DNA from: a bacterium
Lineage (GTDB): Bacteria; Hinthialibacterota; Hinthialibacteria; Hinthialibacterales; Hinthialibacteraceae
Assembly (NCBI GenBank): GCA_041946805.1
Contig: JBHGBC010000069.1
Location: forward strand, 1 to 52,426
Length of the DNA: 52,426 nucleotides
Direction of reading: 5' to 3'
Positions 30,001 through 42,000 of this stretch are shown here, in pieces. Made by a program: the position numbers. Each line of letters starts with the position of its first letter. Position 1 is the first letter of the stretch.

Positions 30001-33000
30001 GCTGGACCGCGGCGGCCTGGGCCACGCCGCCCTGATGGAGGCCCGTAACCAGATTTTGGACTTGGCGCGGAAAGATCCGCGGCTGGCCAACGTCCGGCAG
30101 AACGGCTTGGAAGATGTGCCCGAATACCGGATCGACGTGGATTGGGAAAAGACCGGCGCGTTGGGCATCCCCATCACCTCCATCCACAACACCATCTCGG
30201 CGGCTTTCGGCAGCGCCTATGTCAATGATTTCATCCAGGGCGGCCGGGTTAAGCGGGTGTACGCGCAGGCGGACTCGCCGTACCGCATGCTTCCCCAAGA
30301 CCTGCAAAAACTGTACGTACGCAACAACGCGGGCAAGATGGTTCCCTTCGCGTCCTTCGCCACGGGCCACTGGACCTCCGGTTCCCCCAAACTGGACCGG
30401 TTCAACGCCTTCCCCTCCATCAACATCCTGGGCGAACCCGCCCCGGGGCGAAGCTCCGGCGAGGCCATGCAGGCCATGGAAGAGTTTGTCCGCCAGCTGC
30501 CCCAGGGGATCGGCTTCGACTGGACCGGGCTTTCCTACCAGGAGCGCCAGTCCGGCGCCCAGGCGCCCTTGCTGTACGCTTTCTCTATCCTCGTGATCTT
30601 CCTCTGCCTGGCGGCCTTGTACGAGAGCTGGCCCGTCCCCATTTCGATCCTGCTATGCTTGCCCCTCGGGGCCATCGGCGGCGTCCTGGCCACCACCTGG
30701 CGGGGCTTGCCCAACGACGTCTACTTCCAGATCGGGCTGCTGACCACCCTGGGCCTGACCACCAAGAACGCCATCCTGATCGTCCAGTTCGCCAAGGACC
30801 GCGTGGAGGAAGGGATGGACTTGATCGCCGCCACGCTGGAAGGGGCCAAACTCCGGCTGCGCCCCATCGTCATGACCTCGCTGGCCTTCGGCTTCGGCGT
30901 GCTCCCCCTGGCGATGGCGGGCGGGGCCGGCTCGGGAGCGCAGCAGGCCATCGGCACCGGCGTGGTGGGCGGCGTGGTAACCTCCACCTTCCTGGTGCTG
31001 CTCTTCTCGCCCTTGTTCTATGTGCTGATTTACCGCACCTTCGGGATAGTTCGGAAACCCTCCCTGTCAGAGGCCGTTTCCGAAACCGTTCCGATCACCA
31101 GTCATTGAGACACGCCATGATCCACCCCGAGGAGGCCGCATTTCGAAGCGGATTGGCTTTCCAGTAATCCACAGCAGGACTGCAAATTTTCCGAACCCAT
31201 CACTCCGGCGGCGAGGTCGGAGATGTCCCAAATGGATACAGCATGTCCGTTCATGGTTGGATAGTTCTTTCCATCCGGGAATATTTTACCTGCAGATCCA
31301 CTTGATGGGGTGAATTCCCGCTATCCGTCTTGACAGGAAGCACGCGGGCCGGCGTTTTCGAATCGCAAACCAATATTTGTCACTATTTACTCGTCTGCAG
31401 AGGATTTTGCGGGAAAAAACGGCCGTGGGCCATCCCAGAGGATGATATATAGGCATTCCACCAGCGTATCAATGGCTTGATAACTCCGGCGTTGCAGAGT
31501 GCGGAAGATCTTCGGCGTGATATCCCCCCGCGCCCGCGGCCGCAACGGGTCTTGGATCAGCCGCTTTGCCTGGCGCGCAAACACCTGCCCCTCGGCCGAG
31601 GGATTGACCTCGCTCGTCCGTTCCAACTCGCGCAGCAAGCGGATCATGCGTTCCGGATCGATCACCCGGGCCGGGATCCAGAAACTCGCGCAGCCATTGG
31701 GCATGGGGCGTGGAATTGTTCTTCATGCCCCGCTGACTTCTTTACCCGCTCCGAAGTAACTCTCGGTGTACTTATCTCGATACAGCCAATGAATTGGGTG
31801 ATCCTATCCCTTTCTCCAAGGGCCGTCGGCTCTTATCAGTTTAGCGTATACCCGAATTATAAATCCAAACGTGCATCTCCATCTCGGATACGATTCTCAT
31901 ATCTCTCATCTAACTCTTTTCAAATCAATCACTTATCGATTTTCTCCTCCCCTCTCCCTCTCCATTAATCTCCATTTCTTGCGGCGCGTTCTCCATGAGT
32001 AGCAGCAATTGATCCCAATCAGCCGAATCGTAAGGATTCCACAGGATGAGCAACGCCAATCCCCTCCCCGGCATTCCCGAACCATGGGCGGCCGTGCTGA
32101 ACGTCAGGCAATTGGCCCTGCATGGCGCGCGGCTCGCGTCCACCCTCCAATCGCAATCTCAAAAATTGGAACAACAATCCCAGGAAATCGACCGCTTGGT
32201 CCGCGAAAACCAACGCCTGCTTCGCTTGGCGGACATCGGCCGGCGCGACCTGGACCAACGCAAGCATGAAATTTTACACCGCCTGCGGGCCGTGGTCCTC
32301 TACACCGGCGGCCAGGAACGCCTGCGCGCCATGGAACGGCTGCTGGCCCAGGACGAGACCGATCCCGCCGAGGTGGCCCACTGGCACCAGCAGGTCACCA
32401 CGGAATTCAACGCGCTGTACCCCACGCGCCCCTGTTCCCGGATTTCTGCCGATATTCCTGCGGGCAAGTTGAACACCCGGGACTGGACCGCCTACCGCCT
32501 CCGCGTGGGATCCACCGAATGACATTGAGATCCAACGGTTGATCATGCGCGTGCAGCGCATGAATCCTGGGATGATTACGACAAAAGTCATCAATTCCCT
32601 CTCCCTCTGGGAAAGGGATAGGGTGAGGGAAGGCCTTTCGCTTCCCAATTCCCCTGCAAACAACCACACAAATCCATGCCAACCAATTAGTGAATCAGAA
32701 ATTGCTGATCAAGGAGGACCCCATGACCCGAACGATCGACAACCATGGCATCGGAGCGCTGTACGGCACCTTCGCCGTCACCGAAACCGGCGGCGTGTAT
32801 GACCTGGATTCGGACAACCTCGGCGACGCCGTGAGCCTGGCGGACAGCAACCGGATCCACCACGGCAGCGACGGCGGCCAACTGCTCGGCCGGCTGGAGT
32901 ATGTGGCCGGCGGGCTGGCGACCGTGCAGATCCGGGGCGTGGCGCGTTTCAAGATCAACACCGGCAAAACCGCCCCCAGCGTCGGCAACGGGGTAGTGGT

Positions 33001-39000: not shown

Positions 39001-42000
39001 CAGGGGACGGATTCTCTTTGTGGATGGGGTACCGCCCCCGCGCGGTATCCTCCCACATCCTGGTCATCCTGTGCATCCTGACCATCCTGATTCAGACAAT
39101 CCAACTTCACCCGAAAGGAACCCAACCATGAATAAATCCGGCCTCGCTTTTCTGCTCGTCATTTTCTGTTCCATCTTCGTCCACGCGCAAGCTTTCCAGG
39201 GCGTTTTTGAAAAAGGAGATACCATCCCCTTCTGGGCGCTCTTCGCCGATCCCGCCACCGGCGCGCCCGCCGACCCCGCCGATCCCGCGTACCGCATTCT
39301 GAAAAACGGCCAGACAGTCGCCCTAGGAAACCTCTCGCTGGTGCTGACCGGCCTCGCCGCCGGCTCGTACTCCACCGCCAGCGATGATCCCGGCCGCTAC
39401 GCCATCCTCATTTCCGGCCTGGTCAACGGCGTCACGGCGCAAATTCTGCAAACCTACGAACTGGTGAACGCCGGGGCGGGCCTGGTCTCCATCGCCACCG
39501 AAGTGGCCGGCCTCAACGGCCTCACGCCCATGACCGAAAACGTGTTCGTTCCCTACCTCAACGAAATCCTCGCCCGGGTCCACGATTCCGCCGCCTCGGT
39601 GACACAGGAAATCGCGGCGCAGGTCGAAGCGGCCAGCACGGCGCTGGGGATCCGGCTCGATGAAACACGGCGCGAATCCTCCATCGCCGCGCGCGAACTC
39701 TCCCGCGCCCGCCTCTGGTACGCCGCCGGCACCATCGACTCGCTGTCGCGCAAGGTCCCGGCCGACATGCCTTCGCACATGGAGATCGACATCGCCGCGC
39801 CGGATGATCCCCTCTTCACCGCGCCGCTCGAGACCTTCTTCCGGATTTTCTATTACCCCAACGCCTCCACCGCCACCAAGGCCTCCCGCGAAATCCGCTC
39901 CGCCACGCCGCCCGCCGACGGGATGTTTTATCTGCTGCCTGATCTGCCGTGGTGATCCGAATCGGAGATTTCGTGACGAACGGCTCATGGAAATCCAGCA
40001 CTTTTTTTCAAGCGCTAACGGCGCGGATCACGTGTAGCCTGCGACGCAAGCCCATGGATGCCTGCCGCGAAAATTCCCTCCCTCTCCCTCTGGGAGAGGA
40101 TCAGGGTGAGGGGAATCCCTGAAACGGCGAAATACATCCGATCTGTTCCGTCGAATAAGTAGATACCTAGTGTGATGGAGAAAGAGATTGGAAAAACTCA
40201 ACTTCTCCTAAAACCAATCCAGTGAGGTGAAACCAACATGACTGATTCAAACCATGATCCCTATCCGCTTCCCTTGGACGATCCCCTCCCGCGCCGGACC
40301 CCCCGGATCCTGGGCCGGCCCCTTGAGGGAAAGGAGAACATCCTCACCGGGAAAAGTTATTCCATCTCGTTGGATGTCTCCTTGCCGTTCCGCCATACCG
40401 TCCTGGTCCGGTTTCCACGCCGGCCGTTTTGGGAGCAACAATCATGACCACGCCCATCCGCCTGAACCAGCATGACATGGGAATCAAATTGACCTTCCAT
40501 TGCCGCGACGAGTCCGGTCTTCCCATCAACCTGGAACAATTCCTCGTCGATTTCTCGTTGTATGATGACGATACGCTGATCAACAAAGGCCGCACCACTT
40601 GCGCCAAGCCCGATGCCGCCCTGGGCGTCGCCGAGTACACCGTCCAGGCCGCTGACACCGCTTCCGCCGGCCTTTTGTATGGCAAACTGCGGATTCATAA
40701 CGCGGATTTCGAAATCAAAAACCTGGGAACCATTCCCATTGAAATCGAGGAAGCCGTGTAATCCCGGCCAGCGGAACTTCTCGATTGACCAATGCAACCG
40801 GGCTGCCTGGCATGACGGGGATTCCGGCCTTGTATAATGTTTAAAGTGGTTTGATCCCAGGTGACTATTTACCCGAATGCAGAACTTTCTAATGGTTTTA
40901 TTCGTGGCAAGAGTATCGAGGAGGTCGCTAAACGATTCCCTCTCCCTCTGGAAGAGGGGCAGGGTGAGGGTAGCCCTAAAAGAGCGGAATCCGTTCTTTC
41001 CCTGCAATGGAGTAAACAGTTACGTTCCCGGCAGGGTAGGCTCCAAGCCTAGTGTACACCTTTTGTGTGATCTTGGTCATCGTGTTCATCCCGGATATCC
41101 TGATTCAGACTAAACCCAAATCCATCGGTACGGATTGAGTATTGAATATGCCCGAATTGCGCCGAGATCCCATAATCAACCGCTGGGTCATCGTGGCCCG
41201 GGAACGGGCCAAGCGGCCCCTTGATTTTCCCCATGCCCCCGATCCGCCCCGGTCCGGTTTCTGCCCGTTCTGCCCCGGCCATGAAGAAAAAACGCCGAAG
41301 GAAATCCTGGCCTGCCCCGCCCTCGATCCCGGTGCCACCCCGGCGGATTGGATCCTCCGGGTGGTTCCCAACAAGTTCCCCGCCCTGGTCCAGGAAGGAG
41401 TGTTGCACCAGGAATGGCAGGGCCTTTACGAAAAAATGACCGGCCTCGGCACGCACGAAGTCCTCATCGAAACCCCGGTTCACGATCAGACCTTCGCCGA
41501 GTACAGCAGCCGCCATGTCGAAAAAATCCTCTGGGCCTGCCGCGAACGTATCTACCGCCTTAGCCAGGAACCGGATTTTCAATACATCCTCATTTTCAAG
41601 AACCACGGCGTGGAAGCCGGGGCCTCGCTCGACCATCCCCATTCCCAAATCATCGCCCTGCCCATCGTCCCCCAGCTGGTCTCCGAGGAAATGAACGGCG
41701 CTCTGGGCTACTTCGATACCAACGGCCGCTGCGTGTATTGCGACATGATCCGCCAGGAGATGGAAGATCCCACGCGGATCGTCCTCGTCAACGAGAAATT
41801 TCTGGCCCTCGAACCTTACGCCTCCCGCTTCCCTTTCGAAACCTGGATTCTCCCCCTGCGTCACGACCCTCATTTCGTTAACCTGCAAGATGAGCATTTG
41901 CTCCCGCTCGCGGCCATCCTGCGGGACACGCTCTGGCGGATCAAACAACTGCTCCAGGATCCCCCCTACAACTTTATGCTCCACACGTCCCCCTGCCGCG

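Follow-up and report, generated by a model that had tools for sequence, protein, structure and literature searches.

The window, a stretch of 52,426 nucleotides from a genome of the phylum Hinthialibacterota, carries a phage-derived block of genes in the midst of bacterial ones, which raises the question of whether this block belongs to a virus or to its host, and of what it could make. The block lies on the plus strand at 32046–40761. Its ORF positions in the initial annotation were reproduced, and host genes flank it on both sides, AcrB upstream (27932–31108) and galT (41142–42179) and purC (42258–43325) downstream, with efp and dnaA beyond. It holds the genes for an HK97-type capsid protein and for Dit together with ten conserved neighbours, and a hairpin repeat of the host recurs in its gaps:

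32046–32522, plus strand: g22, coiled-coil protein of 158 aa, candidate scaffolding protein
32690–33124, plus strand: g23, head protein of 144 aa, cement/decoration-like
33170–34234, plus strand: major capsid protein of HK97 type, 354 aa
34386–34778, plus strand: g25, conserved protein of 130 aa between capsid and Dit, candidate head-tail connector
34775–35458, plus strand: distal tail protein (Dit), 227 aa
35545–36531, plus strand: g27, predicted prohead (capsid maturation) protease, 328 aa
36533–37330, plus strand: g28, virion structural protein of 265 aa (by weak matches of orthologues)
37677–38516, plus strand: g29, fibre-like protein with an N-terminal signal peptide
38741–38998, plus strand: g30, 85 aa, coiled coil and one C-terminal membrane helix
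39128–39955, plus strand: g31, protein of 275 aa with a signal peptide
40238–40447, plus strand: g32, doubtful ORF of 69 aa
40429–40761, plus strand: g33, about 105 aa, possibly Ig-like
32594, 35479, 37510, 40077 and 40935 (span 32594–40977): five copies of a GC-rich, host-wide hairpin repeat, family D2, in intergenic gaps

The Pfam and PHROGs matches claimed for the capsid, Dit, g27 and g23 were all obtained again. The capsid protein matched Phage_capsid_4 (PF25209; 1.1e-13, 52.5 bits, cut-off 27) and the ‘major head protein’ family phrog_3922 (5.2e-77), and its length was found to be constant at 354–355 aa in 19/19 genomes. The g23 protein matched phrog_4588, ‘virion structural protein’, at 4.5e-4, and its orthologue in f6, the most distant of the host families (f1 to f6), did so at 2.6e-14 together with a sub-threshold match to Phage_cement_2 (0.0026). 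The g23 gene stands immediately 5′ of the capsid gene in all 18 phylum loci and in all 24 loci of a second phylum, Zixibacteria. The g22 protein showed sub-threshold matches to Pfam families of coiled-coil type, and in 6 of the 24 Zixibacteria loci its profile matched the gene that separates protease and g23; its position and composition make it a candidate scaffold.

The g27 product had been described as a protein of no known fold, which no longer holds, as its N-terminal domain shows the fold of a capsid-maturation protease. The protein has a conserved N-terminal domain (approximately residues 25–215) followed by a variable C-terminal part, and the AlphaFold2 model of residues 25–215 (pLDDT 85.9) matched the T4 gp21 prohead protease best (Z 8.9, rmsd 3.5, 134 aligned), followed by the VZV (Z 6.3) and HCMV (Z 5.5) proteases, the next row being at 4.8. 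His92, Ser151 and a Cys/His cluster were invariant in 20 sequences, and both phages and the Zixibacteria element have a g27 homologue immediately before the capsid gene. The predicted fold and the invariant His and Ser thus identify g27 as a prohead protease, an assignment that is new relative to the earlier ‘unknown’ label (phrog_16951, 3e-30).

On the tail side, the C-terminal domain of Dit matched SPP1_Dit (2.1e-9, 37.9 bits, cut-off 25) and the protein matched phrog_33 (7.3e-12); a protein of Bacillus phage CUBc25 annotated as ‘distal protein’ was also hit by the Dit profile (8e-5). Both g25 and g28 are present in 18/18 loci, and sequence profiles yielded nothing to back the connector-like fold claimed for g25 or the fibre-like fold claimed for g28. 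No match to g25 was found in Pfam, PHROGs or PDB sequences, nor any PDB sequence match to g28; in 9 of 24 Zixibacteria loci the g25 profile matched a gene about 2.5 kb 3′ of that for the capsid, and the position of g25 alone suggests a connector. Six of eight further g28 orthologues matched the ‘virion structural protein’ families phrog_358 and phrog_3398 weakly and repeatedly, and DUF4815 was sub-threshold in six of nine (0.0034 in this genome).

The genes g29–g33 form an order-specific accessory block, and g22, g29, g30, g31 and g33 were confined to families f1 and f3 among the 18 loci. The f3 orthologue of g29 (758 aa) contains Laminin_G_3 (3e-19) and the Peptidase_S74 chaperone domain (2.4e-4), and it also matches PHROG baseplate-wedge and tail-fibre families. 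A Sec-type signal peptide was found in 12 of 13 g29 orthologues and a signal peptide in 9/9 of g31, for which Pfam and PHROGs held no family match; these conserved signal peptides fit poorly with a reading of g29 and g31 as virion parts. The g30 gene was conserved in 13/13 orthologues, each with the hydrophobic C-terminal stretch (dN/dS 0.088 and 0.025 in two genome pairs), and one may speculate on a holin-like role. The g33 gene occurs in 12 of 13 f1 and f3 loci, with Invasin_D3 sub-threshold in two of four orthologues, and g32 was detected by tblastn in 3 of 18 loci only (dN/dS 0.295).

The system extends beyond the window, as a portal, a baseplate hub and a large terminase, each a lone gene, belong to it as well:

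C309:14851–16158: portal, phrog_3753 (1e-37)
C279:15612–16775, minus strand: baseplate hub of gp27/Mu-gp44 type, from Foldseek on a model
C34:6275–7849: large terminase, Terminase_6N (2.3e-12), with AGRGAGKST and IILDE motifs

The hub model (pLDDT 85.5) matched Mu gp44, T4 gp27 and hubs of contractile injection systems and of diffocin (Foldseek E 5e-18 to 1e-16). The genes of the system are therefore dispersed over four contigs in this genome. In f6, the core, portal, hub and terminase stand together in one collinear cluster of 14 genes and 11 kb, found whole in four genomes and broken by a contig end in a fifth, and in f4 the core is flanked by portal and hub. Because of this linkage and the similar phyletic patterns of capsid (29/35 genomes), portal (31/35) and hub (30/35), portal, hub and core genes were taken as one system.

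A recount placed the capsid gene, as had been claimed, in single copy in 29 of the 35 phylum genomes, with one locus in each unless a contig end had split the hit; these included 17 of 18 genomes of at least 90% completeness and at most 5% contamination, and 22 of 27 genera. Its identity to this genome fell with host distance, from 94% in the same genus through 67–80% in the same family, 62–64% in f3 and 62% in f4 to 54–57% in f6. The order g23-capsid-g25-Dit-g27-g28 was the same in 18/18 loci. In G001, Dit escaped the query taken from this genome, but an f6 query detected it. The protease follows Dit in 18/18 phylum loci, but every relative outside the phylum has it before the capsid gene, a shared rare rearrangement that supports vertical descent. 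For 18 genomes, the trees built from capsid, portal and UvrB agreed on families and pairs and showed no conflict with support, and pairwise identities were correlated (r = 0.91 and 0.88; none of 2000 Mantel permutations as high). The vertical inheritance proposed at the outset is strengthened by the trees, this correlation and the synteny. Capsid, portal and hub were all absent from f2 (0/2, one genome being 95% complete in 9 contigs) and f5 (0/1), and G013 had no capsid match and a hub gene with four stop codons.

Selection was measured as dN/dS by the Nei–Gojobori method. The 12 cluster genes compared with G016 gave 0.074 (capsid) to 0.302, in agreement with the earlier range, with 0.30 for g22, 0.128 for galT and 0.097 for purC; an independent pair, G025 and G026, gave 0.025–0.270. 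These values bear on whether the system could be a cryptic prophage of long standing, or a temperate phage that speciates along with its host, and serve the host in no way; in favour of this, every part is of phage origin, two families lack the system and its surroundings vary. Across the 18 loci, what lies upstream of the cluster varies from genome to genome, as noted before, and the flanks of the lone portal are unlike even those in the same-genus genome, which implies some past movement; purC lies 3′ of the cluster in 6 of 10 f1 loci, with galT too in four. Such a phage is contradicted by the single copy per genome, by trees that match UvrB to the deepest split, by dN/dS of 0.03–0.30 with the constant capsid length, and by dispersal over four contigs, a state incompatible with autonomous phage life. 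The phage structural origin and the absence of integration and replication genes were both upheld, as no integrase, repressor or replication family was found among the 36 window ORFs scanned or in the f6 cluster. The GC content of the cluster resembles that of its flanks and the D2 hairpins, whose core 14-mer occurs 483 times genome-wide, give its gaps a host-type intergenic architecture; both were counted against prophage status. So was the patchiness of a control, an ordinary prophage portal of HK97 type on C40, present in 7/35 genomes and absent from the same-genus genome. We hold the prophage explanation to be hardly credible.

The terminase bears on what the system does. It had been reported as unlinked and as missing from the more distant families; the first part stands for this genome, while the second does not, because f6 has a cluster-linked terminase of another type in 7/7 genomes. 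The G000-type gene occurs in 13/19 f1 and 4/4 f3 genomes, and no similarity was detectable between the f1/f3 and f6 types. With four queries, no terminase was found in the f1 genomes G008 (99% complete) and G022 (95%), and only fragments of about 50 aa in G017 (94%), the other parts being intact or nearly so. These gaps and the change of type by family would suit a domesticated capsid-plus-baseplate particle with a purpose other than DNA transfer, for which a terminase is dispensable; it might, for example, be a shell that is empty or loaded with protein, bind to surfaces or kill, or act as a decoy that protects from related phages. The exported g29 and g31, g29 being lectin- or fibre-like, and the lack of a recognised tube or tape measure for DNA passage agree with it. 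Nevertheless, most f1 and all f3 and f6 genomes retain a terminase, and the exchange of one type for another with the function preserved argues that packaging is selected for. Portal and protease are conserved throughout, G017 also has a stop codon in its hub gene and may simply be decaying, and we know of no head-bearing non-GTA particle of this kind. This explanation is considered unlikely.

As in the initial annotation, no tail tube or tape measure, and likewise no terminator or sheath, was recognised in the window, the f6 cluster or whole-genome profile searches, a negative that stands beside g25, g28 and four small f6 genes carrying no role assignment. The tail shaft is thus probably absent. 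In siphophage tails, the assembly of Dit and hub normally involves a tape measure. Bacillus phage vB_BcM_CUBc25 (PV037644), the annotated phage nearest to the system, shares terminase, portal, g27-type protease, g23 and capsid with it, as do the gut contigs MT835508 and MT835952, and has Dit as well; unlike the cluster, it is a complete phage with connector, tube and replication genes, and eight small genes and a 1695-aa tape measure stand between its capsid gene and Dit where Hinthialibacterota have only g25. It is thus conceivable that the system is a satellite-like, capsid-forming head donor whose tube and tape measure are borrowed from co-resident phages or unrecognised host genes, the complete particle being long-tailed, and the C40 prophage remnant of this genome does carry a tape measure. 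The C40 element is, however, patchy and missing from the same-genus genome. A T4-gp19-like gene (g05033), whose co-inheritance had been left open, is not inherited with the system: it occurs in f1 only (17/19; 0/12 in f3, f4 and f6), and it has a signal or membrane anchor and no adjacent sheath. Capsid-forming phage-inducible chromosomal islands (cf-PICIs) likewise have a compact head and packaging set without a tail shaft, but they carry integrase and replication genes and are mobile and patchily distributed, whereas the Hinthialibacterota system has no such genes, is vertically inherited and co-diverges with its hosts. A borrowed shaft is therefore quite improbable.

The explanation that we favour, with a probability of roughly 55%, is a domesticated, dispersed, phage-derived system owned by the host and making a GTA-like particle rather than a virus. 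It would have been fixed in an early Hinthialibacterota ancestor and vertically inherited since, the window cluster being its main locus. Scaffold, capsid protein and portal would form a procapsid, which the protease would mature and the terminase fill with DNA; a very short tail tip of g25, Dit ring, hub trimer and g28 would close the portal and may deliver the DNA into another cell. The product would be a gene-transfer-agent-like viriform with no means to replicate, integrate or move. If so, an uncultured phylum has kept a virus-derived, DNA-packaging capsid with a stub tail intact by inheritance.

A lysis gene was not recognised in this genome, which also lacks a homologue of the M15 peptidase seen in f6. 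This was counted against the GTA-like reading, as were the lack of a recognised tail shaft, the terminase gaps, the two terminase types, the g29 and g31 signal peptides and the variable portal and cluster flanks.

Among known systems, RcGTA has a tube, a tape measure and a canonical gene order. The Hinthialibacterota capsid belongs to another Pfam family than that of RcGTA, with no sequence relationship, and its protease follows Dit, unlike in RcGTA. The RcGTA-type viriforms of Alphaproteobacteria resemble it, as far as the portion of the source used here describes them, in vertical inheritance, caudovirus origin, purifying selection, a head-tail cluster with unlinked loci, Dit and hub, and lack of replication and integration genes (Kogay et al, 2022, PMC9662315). 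The portion used of a report on FpGTA of Faecalibacterium prausnitzii describes head and packaging genes of phage origin and places the baseplate and fibre genes at other sites of the chromosome, the two operons lying 125 kb apart; it also describes conservation across the host clade and particles with no visible tail, and mentions neither a tube nor a tape measure (Borodovich et al, 2026, PMC12946183). This precedent was counted in favour of the GTA-like reading. FpGTA is experimentally supported by particles, 8.5-kb DNA and proteomics and spans a genus, whereas the Hinthialibacterota system, likened to it by description from gene content only, spans a phylum and occupies four loci in this genome, its basal family retaining a single cluster (PMC12946183).

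A single-copy sister head module was found in 145 of 151 sampled Zixibacteria genomes, with homologous portal, protease, g22, g23, capsid and g25; its order is canonical (portal, terminase, protease, g23, capsid), and no Dit, g28 or hub homologue was found in 24 loci. Its capsids form a clade separate from that of Hinthialibacterota, at 35–39% identity, and those of the gut ‘Bacteriophage sp.’ contigs MT835508 and MT835952, which are unverified and unannotated records, are 38–42% identical. In the capsid tree, Hinthialibacterota, Zixibacteria and the gut phage-like contigs formed a trichotomy.

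The phage-derived cluster at 32046–40761 consists of twelve plus-strand ORFs (g22–g33, short for g04322–g04333) that lie between an AcrB gene (27932–31108) and the galT/purC pair (41142–43325), in a window that is otherwise ordinary chromosome carrying uvrB, tpiA, efp, dnaA and gcvT. The GC content of the cluster (0.58–0.64) is the same as that of its flanks. The family matches reported in the initial annotation were reproduced: the capsid gene (33170–34234), which encodes a major capsid protein of the HK97 fold, matched PF25209 (Phage_capsid_4) with 52.5 bits against a cut-off of 27 and phrog_3922 at 5.2e-77, the distal-tail gene Dit (34775–35458) matched the SPP1_Dit C-terminal domain with 37.9 bits against a cut-off of 25 and phrog_33 at 7.3e-12, and the head protein g23 and the product of g27 matched phrog_4588 (4.5e-4) and phrog_16951 (3e-30), respectively. 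The scan of 36 ORFs of the window gave no match to integrase, repressor or replication families, as had been stated. The system extends beyond this window, and the finding is real, larger and more informative than was first described.

A fuller form of the cluster was found in f6, the most distant of the families f1–f6 of the phylum, f1 being the family of the genome under study. The f6 locus L057 carries, in this order, a portal gene (phrog_3753, 7e-45), a 229-aa gene, g23, the capsid gene, the candidate connector g25, Dit, g27, the structural gene g28, a 118-aa gene, an M15 peptidase, a 104-aa gene, a 365-aa gene, a 145-aa gene for which 2 of 3 orthologues gave weak DNA-binding matches, and a large terminase (phrog_38, 7e-72). 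The 14 genes keep this order in four genomes (G028, G031, G032 and G033) with varying host flanks, and the locus of G030 is interrupted by a contig end. Replication and integration families were not found in the f6 cluster, where small genes of unassigned family remain. When the f6 proteins were searched against the genome under study, two lone genes amid host genes were recovered, namely a portal on contig C309 (43% identity to the f6 portal; phrog_3753, 1e-37) and a homologue of the 365-aa protein on contig C279. The C279 protein was modelled with 26 orthologues (pLDDT 85.5), and Foldseek aligned the model with many baseplate hubs at a probability of 1.00 and E values of 5e-18 to 1e-11, with 74 matches at E ≤ 0.001; the hubs matched at 5e-18 to 1e-16 were those of contractile injection systems, diffocin, Mu gp44, the MuSo2 43-kDa protein, T4 gp27 and VgrG. 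A language-model look-up likewise indicated a hub. As modelled, the C279 protein is a baseplate hub with the T4 gp27/Mu gp44/VgrG N-terminal fold. The predicted complex of two Dit copies with the hub scored 0.00 and was uninformative in either direction.

The profiles of every gene of the system were also run against all 71,497 ORFs of the genome under study and returned one match per gene and no other, and those of the genes seen only in f6 (the 229-, 118-, 104- and 145-aa genes, the M15 peptidase and the f6 terminase) returned none at E ≤ 0.01. A GntR-like gene beside the hub was considered as the counterpart of the f6 145-aa gene and was found to be unrelated to it on comparison. The portal is present in 31 and the hub in 30 of the 35 genomes of the phylum, each in 17 of the 18 high-quality ones, and both, like the capsid, are absent from f2 (0/2, including the 95% complete G003 with 9 contigs) and f5 (0/1). 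In f6 and f4 the portal gene precedes the capsid gene by 2–3 kb, and in f1 and f3 it is on a separate contig or at a distance of 13 kb (G017) or about 500 kb (G012). Because the portal and the capsid are linked in all relatives outside the phylum, linkage is the older state and the dispersal arose in the order of the genome under study. The phylum also shows domestication at successive steps: one family has a single 11-kb cluster, another still has the portal and hub on either side of the core, dispersal into lone genes is complete in the order studied here, and two families have lost the system.

The distribution and descent claimed for the capsid gene held up. It occurs in 29 of 35 genomes (17 of the 18 high-quality ones), at one site each except for hits split at contig ends, its identity declines from 94% to 54% with host distance, and its product is 354–355 aa long in 19 of 19 genomes. 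The core order g23-capsid-g25-Dit-g27-g28 is collinear in all 18 fetched loci, the Dit of G001 being visible only with an f6 query, and the candidate scaffold g22 and the accessory genes g29–g33 are restricted to f1 and f3; of 10 f1 loci, 6 have purC after the cluster. UvrB from the window, which is present in 35/35 genomes, served as the housekeeping control, and its identities (96%, 76–84%, 77–79%, 69% and 64–67%) rank the genomes as the capsid does. Capsid, portal and UvrB trees (IQ-TREE quick, LG+G4) were built for the 18 genomes having all three proteins, G017 being excluded because its uvrB is split across two contigs. The three trees all recovered the families f1, f3 and f6 and paired G000 (the genome under study) with G016, G015 with G022 and G025 with G026, and no conflict between them had support. 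Pairwise identities of capsid and UvrB correlated with r = 0.91 and those of portal and UvrB with r = 0.88, and none of 2000 Mantel permutations was as high, a result that is read as co-divergence and not as a probability because the genomes are kin and hence non-independent. The Nei-Gojobori dN/dS against G016 was again 0.074–0.302 for the cluster genes (galT 0.128, purC 0.097), and in a second pair, from f3, it was 0.025–0.270. The absence of prophage hallmarks (integrase, repressor, replication) and a distribution that tracks host phylogeny bear out the view that this is not a prophage.

What ordinary prophage remnants look like in this phylum is likely shown by a phage-like block on contig C40 (L032, 10431–16653, minus strand) that lies beside maf and is unrelated to the window cluster. 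Its genes run in scrambled order (an unknown gene, a tape measure, an S78 prohead protease, a gp10-like gene, the portal and a second capsid gene, PF05065), and the contig stops 120 bases past the block. The block was considered as the missing half of the system and rejected, as its HK97-type portal occurs in 7 of 35 genomes and is absent from the same-genus genome.

The product of g27, which had been listed as having no known fold, was found to carry a conserved N-terminal domain (residues 25–215) that aligns with capsid-maturation proteases. The model (pLDDT 85.9) matched the T4 prohead protease gp21 best (Z 8.9, rmsd 3.5 Å over 134 residues), followed by the varicella-zoster (Z 6.3) and cytomegalovirus (Z 5.5) proteases, with the following row at 4.8. 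Foldseek placed the same families on top but weakly (best E 0.1), so that only the structure-only aligner separated the proteases. No match was obtained with Pfam S78, hhalign against the one S78 protease of the C40 prophage was not significant, and PDB sequence-profile searches with g27, g25 and g28 gave nothing under E 0.1. Among 20 sequences, His92, Ser151 and a Cys-x2-Cys...Cys-x-His cluster never vary, and we take His92 and Ser151 to be the putative catalytic pair, going by what is known of assemblin-type proteases. On the strength of the model, g27 is predicted to be a capsid maturation protease of the assemblin fold shared by T4 gp21 and the herpesvirus proteases. In gut “Bacteriophage sp.” contigs, in Bacillus phage CUBc25 and in 24/24 loci of a sister phylum, the one whose records are titled Zixibacteria, a homologue immediately precedes the capsid gene, and the homologue in Flavonifractor phage Cormatin bears the annotation “major head and protease protein”. 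In 18/18 Hinthialibacterota loci the protease gene is downstream of Dit, and this phylum-wide rearrangement argues for a single origin.

The large terminase of the genome under study is a 525-aa protein encoded on contig C34 (6275–7849). It matched Terminase_6N above the cut-off (2.3e-12) and has the motifs AGRGAGKST and IILDE; Pfam Terminase_6C gave no match in its nuclease domain, and a C-terminal HDD motif was seen by eye. Judged by these motifs, the product is a predicted large terminase comprising an ATPase with Walker motifs and a nuclease domain. It also has an extra N-terminal coiled-coil of about 100 aa, the orthologous open frames being 530–700 aa, and a fused small-terminase-like part is possible. 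G020 and G026 have two full terminase copies each. Among the other f1 genomes, 13 of 19 have this terminase type, as do 4/4 of f3; it was not found in f4 and f5, and f6 gave one weak partial match. The earlier statement that the terminase is not found in the more distant families does not stand, as 7/7 f6 genomes carry a phrog_38-type terminase instead, located, in every case where the contig is long enough, 7–8 kb downstream of the capsid. No similarity between the two types was detectable: the type of the genome under study resembles that of the sister element (28% identity, E 7e-11), and the f6 type that of phage CUBc25 (profile E 7e-10). As the two types are dissimilar, one of them was swapped in, and the swap suggests that packaging remained under selection. 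Speaking against this, four queries failed to detect a terminase in G008 (99% complete) and G022 (95%), and G017 (94%) has terminase fragments of about 50 aa only and a stop codon in its hub gene. That hub gene (L201, G017:C265) is interrupted by one TGA; the hub gene of G013 (L217, G013:C16) has 4 stop codons, with an intact portal and no capsid or terminase matches. G013 and G017 look like lineages in which the system is decaying part by part.

A tube, tape measure, terminator or sheath was not recognised in the window, in the f6 cluster or in the whole-genome profile searches. Phage CUBc25 has eight small genes and a 1695-aa tape measure between the capsid gene and Dit, whereas the genome under study has g25 (130 aa) alone. 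The product of g28 gave weak, recurrent matches to “virion structural protein”, and its protein-atlas look-up returned unnamed viral clusters only, at 0.90. A T4-gp19-like gene that had been noted as lying elsewhere in the genome was also checked for co-inheritance:

C312:17764–18294, minus strand, T4-gp19-like protein of 176 aa with a partial gp19 tube domain and an N-terminal signal/membrane anchor

It is confined to f1 (17/19; 0/12 in f3, f4 and f6) and sits among secreted-protein genes without a nearby sheath gene; it was rejected as a part of the ancestral system. If the system has no shaft, the particle would consist of a head and a Dit-hub tip attached at its neck, which raises the structural question of whether a Dit-hub baseplate can dock on a neck without a tube and tape measure.

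Some proteins of the accessory block g29–g33 do not fit well into this assembly. The f3 orthologue of g29 (758 aa) contains a ConA-like lectin domain (3e-19) and an endosialidase-chaperone domain (2.4e-4) and matches baseplate-wedge and fibre PHROGs. A Sec-type signal peptide was predicted in 12/13 g29 orthologues and a signal peptide in 9/9 of g31, and the small g30 has one C-terminal membrane helix in 13/13 orthologues. The exported g29 and g31 are ill-suited to a cytoplasmic virion assembly line; lysis, surface or recipient roles for g29, g30 and g31 are guesses.

At least 197 capsid relatives were obtained from a scan of species-representative genomes, and the best 80 of these belong to Hinthialibacterota and to genomes titled Zixibacteria or Ignavibacteria, with 35–39% identity in the genomes so titled. 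Of 151 sampled genomes from the phylum of G036, 145 carry the sister capsid gene, once each apart from split genes; since this sample includes the Ignavibacteria-titled genome, the mixed titles reflect labelling and not transfer. The sister head module (L090–L144; G035–G186, some titled Ignavibacteria) comprises portal, terminase, protease, g23 and capsid. Profiles run on 24 sister loci found the protease, g23 and the capsid in all 24, the portal in 19, g25 in 9 and g22 in 6, but no Dit, g28 or hub. A tight group of uniform 334-aa capsids (41–43% identity) was also noticed under “Clostridia bacterium” (P0086–P0120), one of which was seen on 121 contigs of up to 145 kb, and it may represent a third host-resident lineage. 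The Hinthialibacterota, Zixibacteria and 334-aa Clostridia/gut capsids could be one old host-owned family, exapted once or passed between phyla after exaptation, the Hinthialibacterota branch of which would make a hitherto undescribed kind of particle, a DNA-filled head bearing at its neck a siphovirus-type baseplate core of Dit ring and hub, and no shaft. We consider this unlikely. A trichotomy joins the Hinthialibacterota clade (support 80/94), its sister clade (support 100/100) and two phage-like gut contigs in the capsid tree that includes phages. UvrB identity is 60% between the phyla against 64–67% at the deepest split within the phylum, whereas that of the capsid drops from 54–57% to 36–38%. 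With the capsid falling far more than UvrB, and with the trichotomy, one shared domestication may have occurred but is thus not supported.

The reading we prefer, at a probability of roughly 55%, is that the genes make up a gene-transfer-agent (GTA)-like particle system. They are of caudovirus origin and are predicted to encode a virion-like particle (capsid, portal, protease, terminase, Dit and hub). The set is transmitted vertically within the cellular genome, as seen from the occurrence of capsid, portal and hub in 29–31 of 35 genomes, the trees and the Mantel result. It is probably incapable of self-propagation, with a margin of doubt from the small unassigned genes, as no replication or integration families were found in the window or the f6 cluster and its genes are spread over four contigs in the genome under study. 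Clusters of the alphaproteobacterial type (RcGTA) are collinear in the order terminase-portal-protease-capsid-connector-tube-tape measure-Dit-hub; here, in contrast, the protease comes after Dit, the portal, hub and terminase are unlinked, and a tube and tape measure were not recognised. The GTA of Faecalibacterium (FpGTA) sets an experimental precedent for a split GTA that bears a baseplate and whose particles show no visible tail (PMC12946183). As outlined by Kogay et al (2022, PMC9662315), GTAs are encoded by genes of caudovirus origin, pass vertically with the cellular genome, lack replication and integration functions and do not package their genes as a unit; the DNA in the particles is random host DNA that includes, at best, a part of the GTA's own coding region, and a small subpopulation is induced under host control. 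Three independently exapted GTA groups were classified there, and FpGTA joined them in 2026 (PMC12946183).

GTAs have been established experimentally in few lineages. If the reading is true, a further independent system was fixed at the root of an uncultured phylum and a homologous head module in a second phylum, suggesting that host capture of phage capsids is commoner and older than the cultured record shows. No published description of such a system was found in the literature on Hinthialibacter or on GTAs with Zixibacteria, and the founding paper of Hinthialibacter mentions neither phage, capsid nor GTA. A paper on GTAs with Omnitrophota contains generic mentions only, and a paper on Zixibacteria and capsids appears to be unrelated.

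The cluster and its surroundings also carry repeats. Each of g29, g30, g31, galT and purC is closely preceded by a 60-nt repeat that ends in TCCTGATTCAGAC and is always on the plus strand, and a GC-rich palindromic hairpin repeat (CCCTCTCCCTCTGG...AGGGTGAGGG) occurs in five intergenic gaps of the cluster.

Repeat copies in the window
37410–37470, plus strand, 60-nt repeat
38673–38733, plus strand, 60-nt repeat
39054–39114, plus strand, 60-nt repeat
41067–41127, plus strand, 60-nt repeat
42291–42351, plus strand, 60-nt repeat
32594–32636, hairpin repeat
35479–35521, hairpin repeat
37510–37552, hairpin repeat
40077–40119, hairpin repeat
40935–40977, hairpin repeat

Five of the 147 genome-wide copies of the 60-nt repeat (≤1 mismatch) fall within 5 kb, and the repeat may be a common promoter or leader element. 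A second repeat (D4) precedes three of the five genes concerned. The 6.7-Mb genome contains 483 exact copies of the core of the hairpin repeat and 921 with one mismatch, and the “LSLWERDRVRG” peptides of spurious ORFs are this repeat translated. The dnaA gene (47164–48615, minus strand) is 6.4 kb past the cluster end, and cumulative GC skew is lowest near 48–49 kb of the window; the cluster therefore lies near the likely replication origin. At the other end of the window, the stretch 3001–6000 is low in GC (0.44–0.50 against about 0.60) and includes the following gene, which adjoins uvrB:

3565–4686, AAA_15/AAA_21 ATPase

This stretch with its ATPase looks like an acquired island, possibly a defence-related one.
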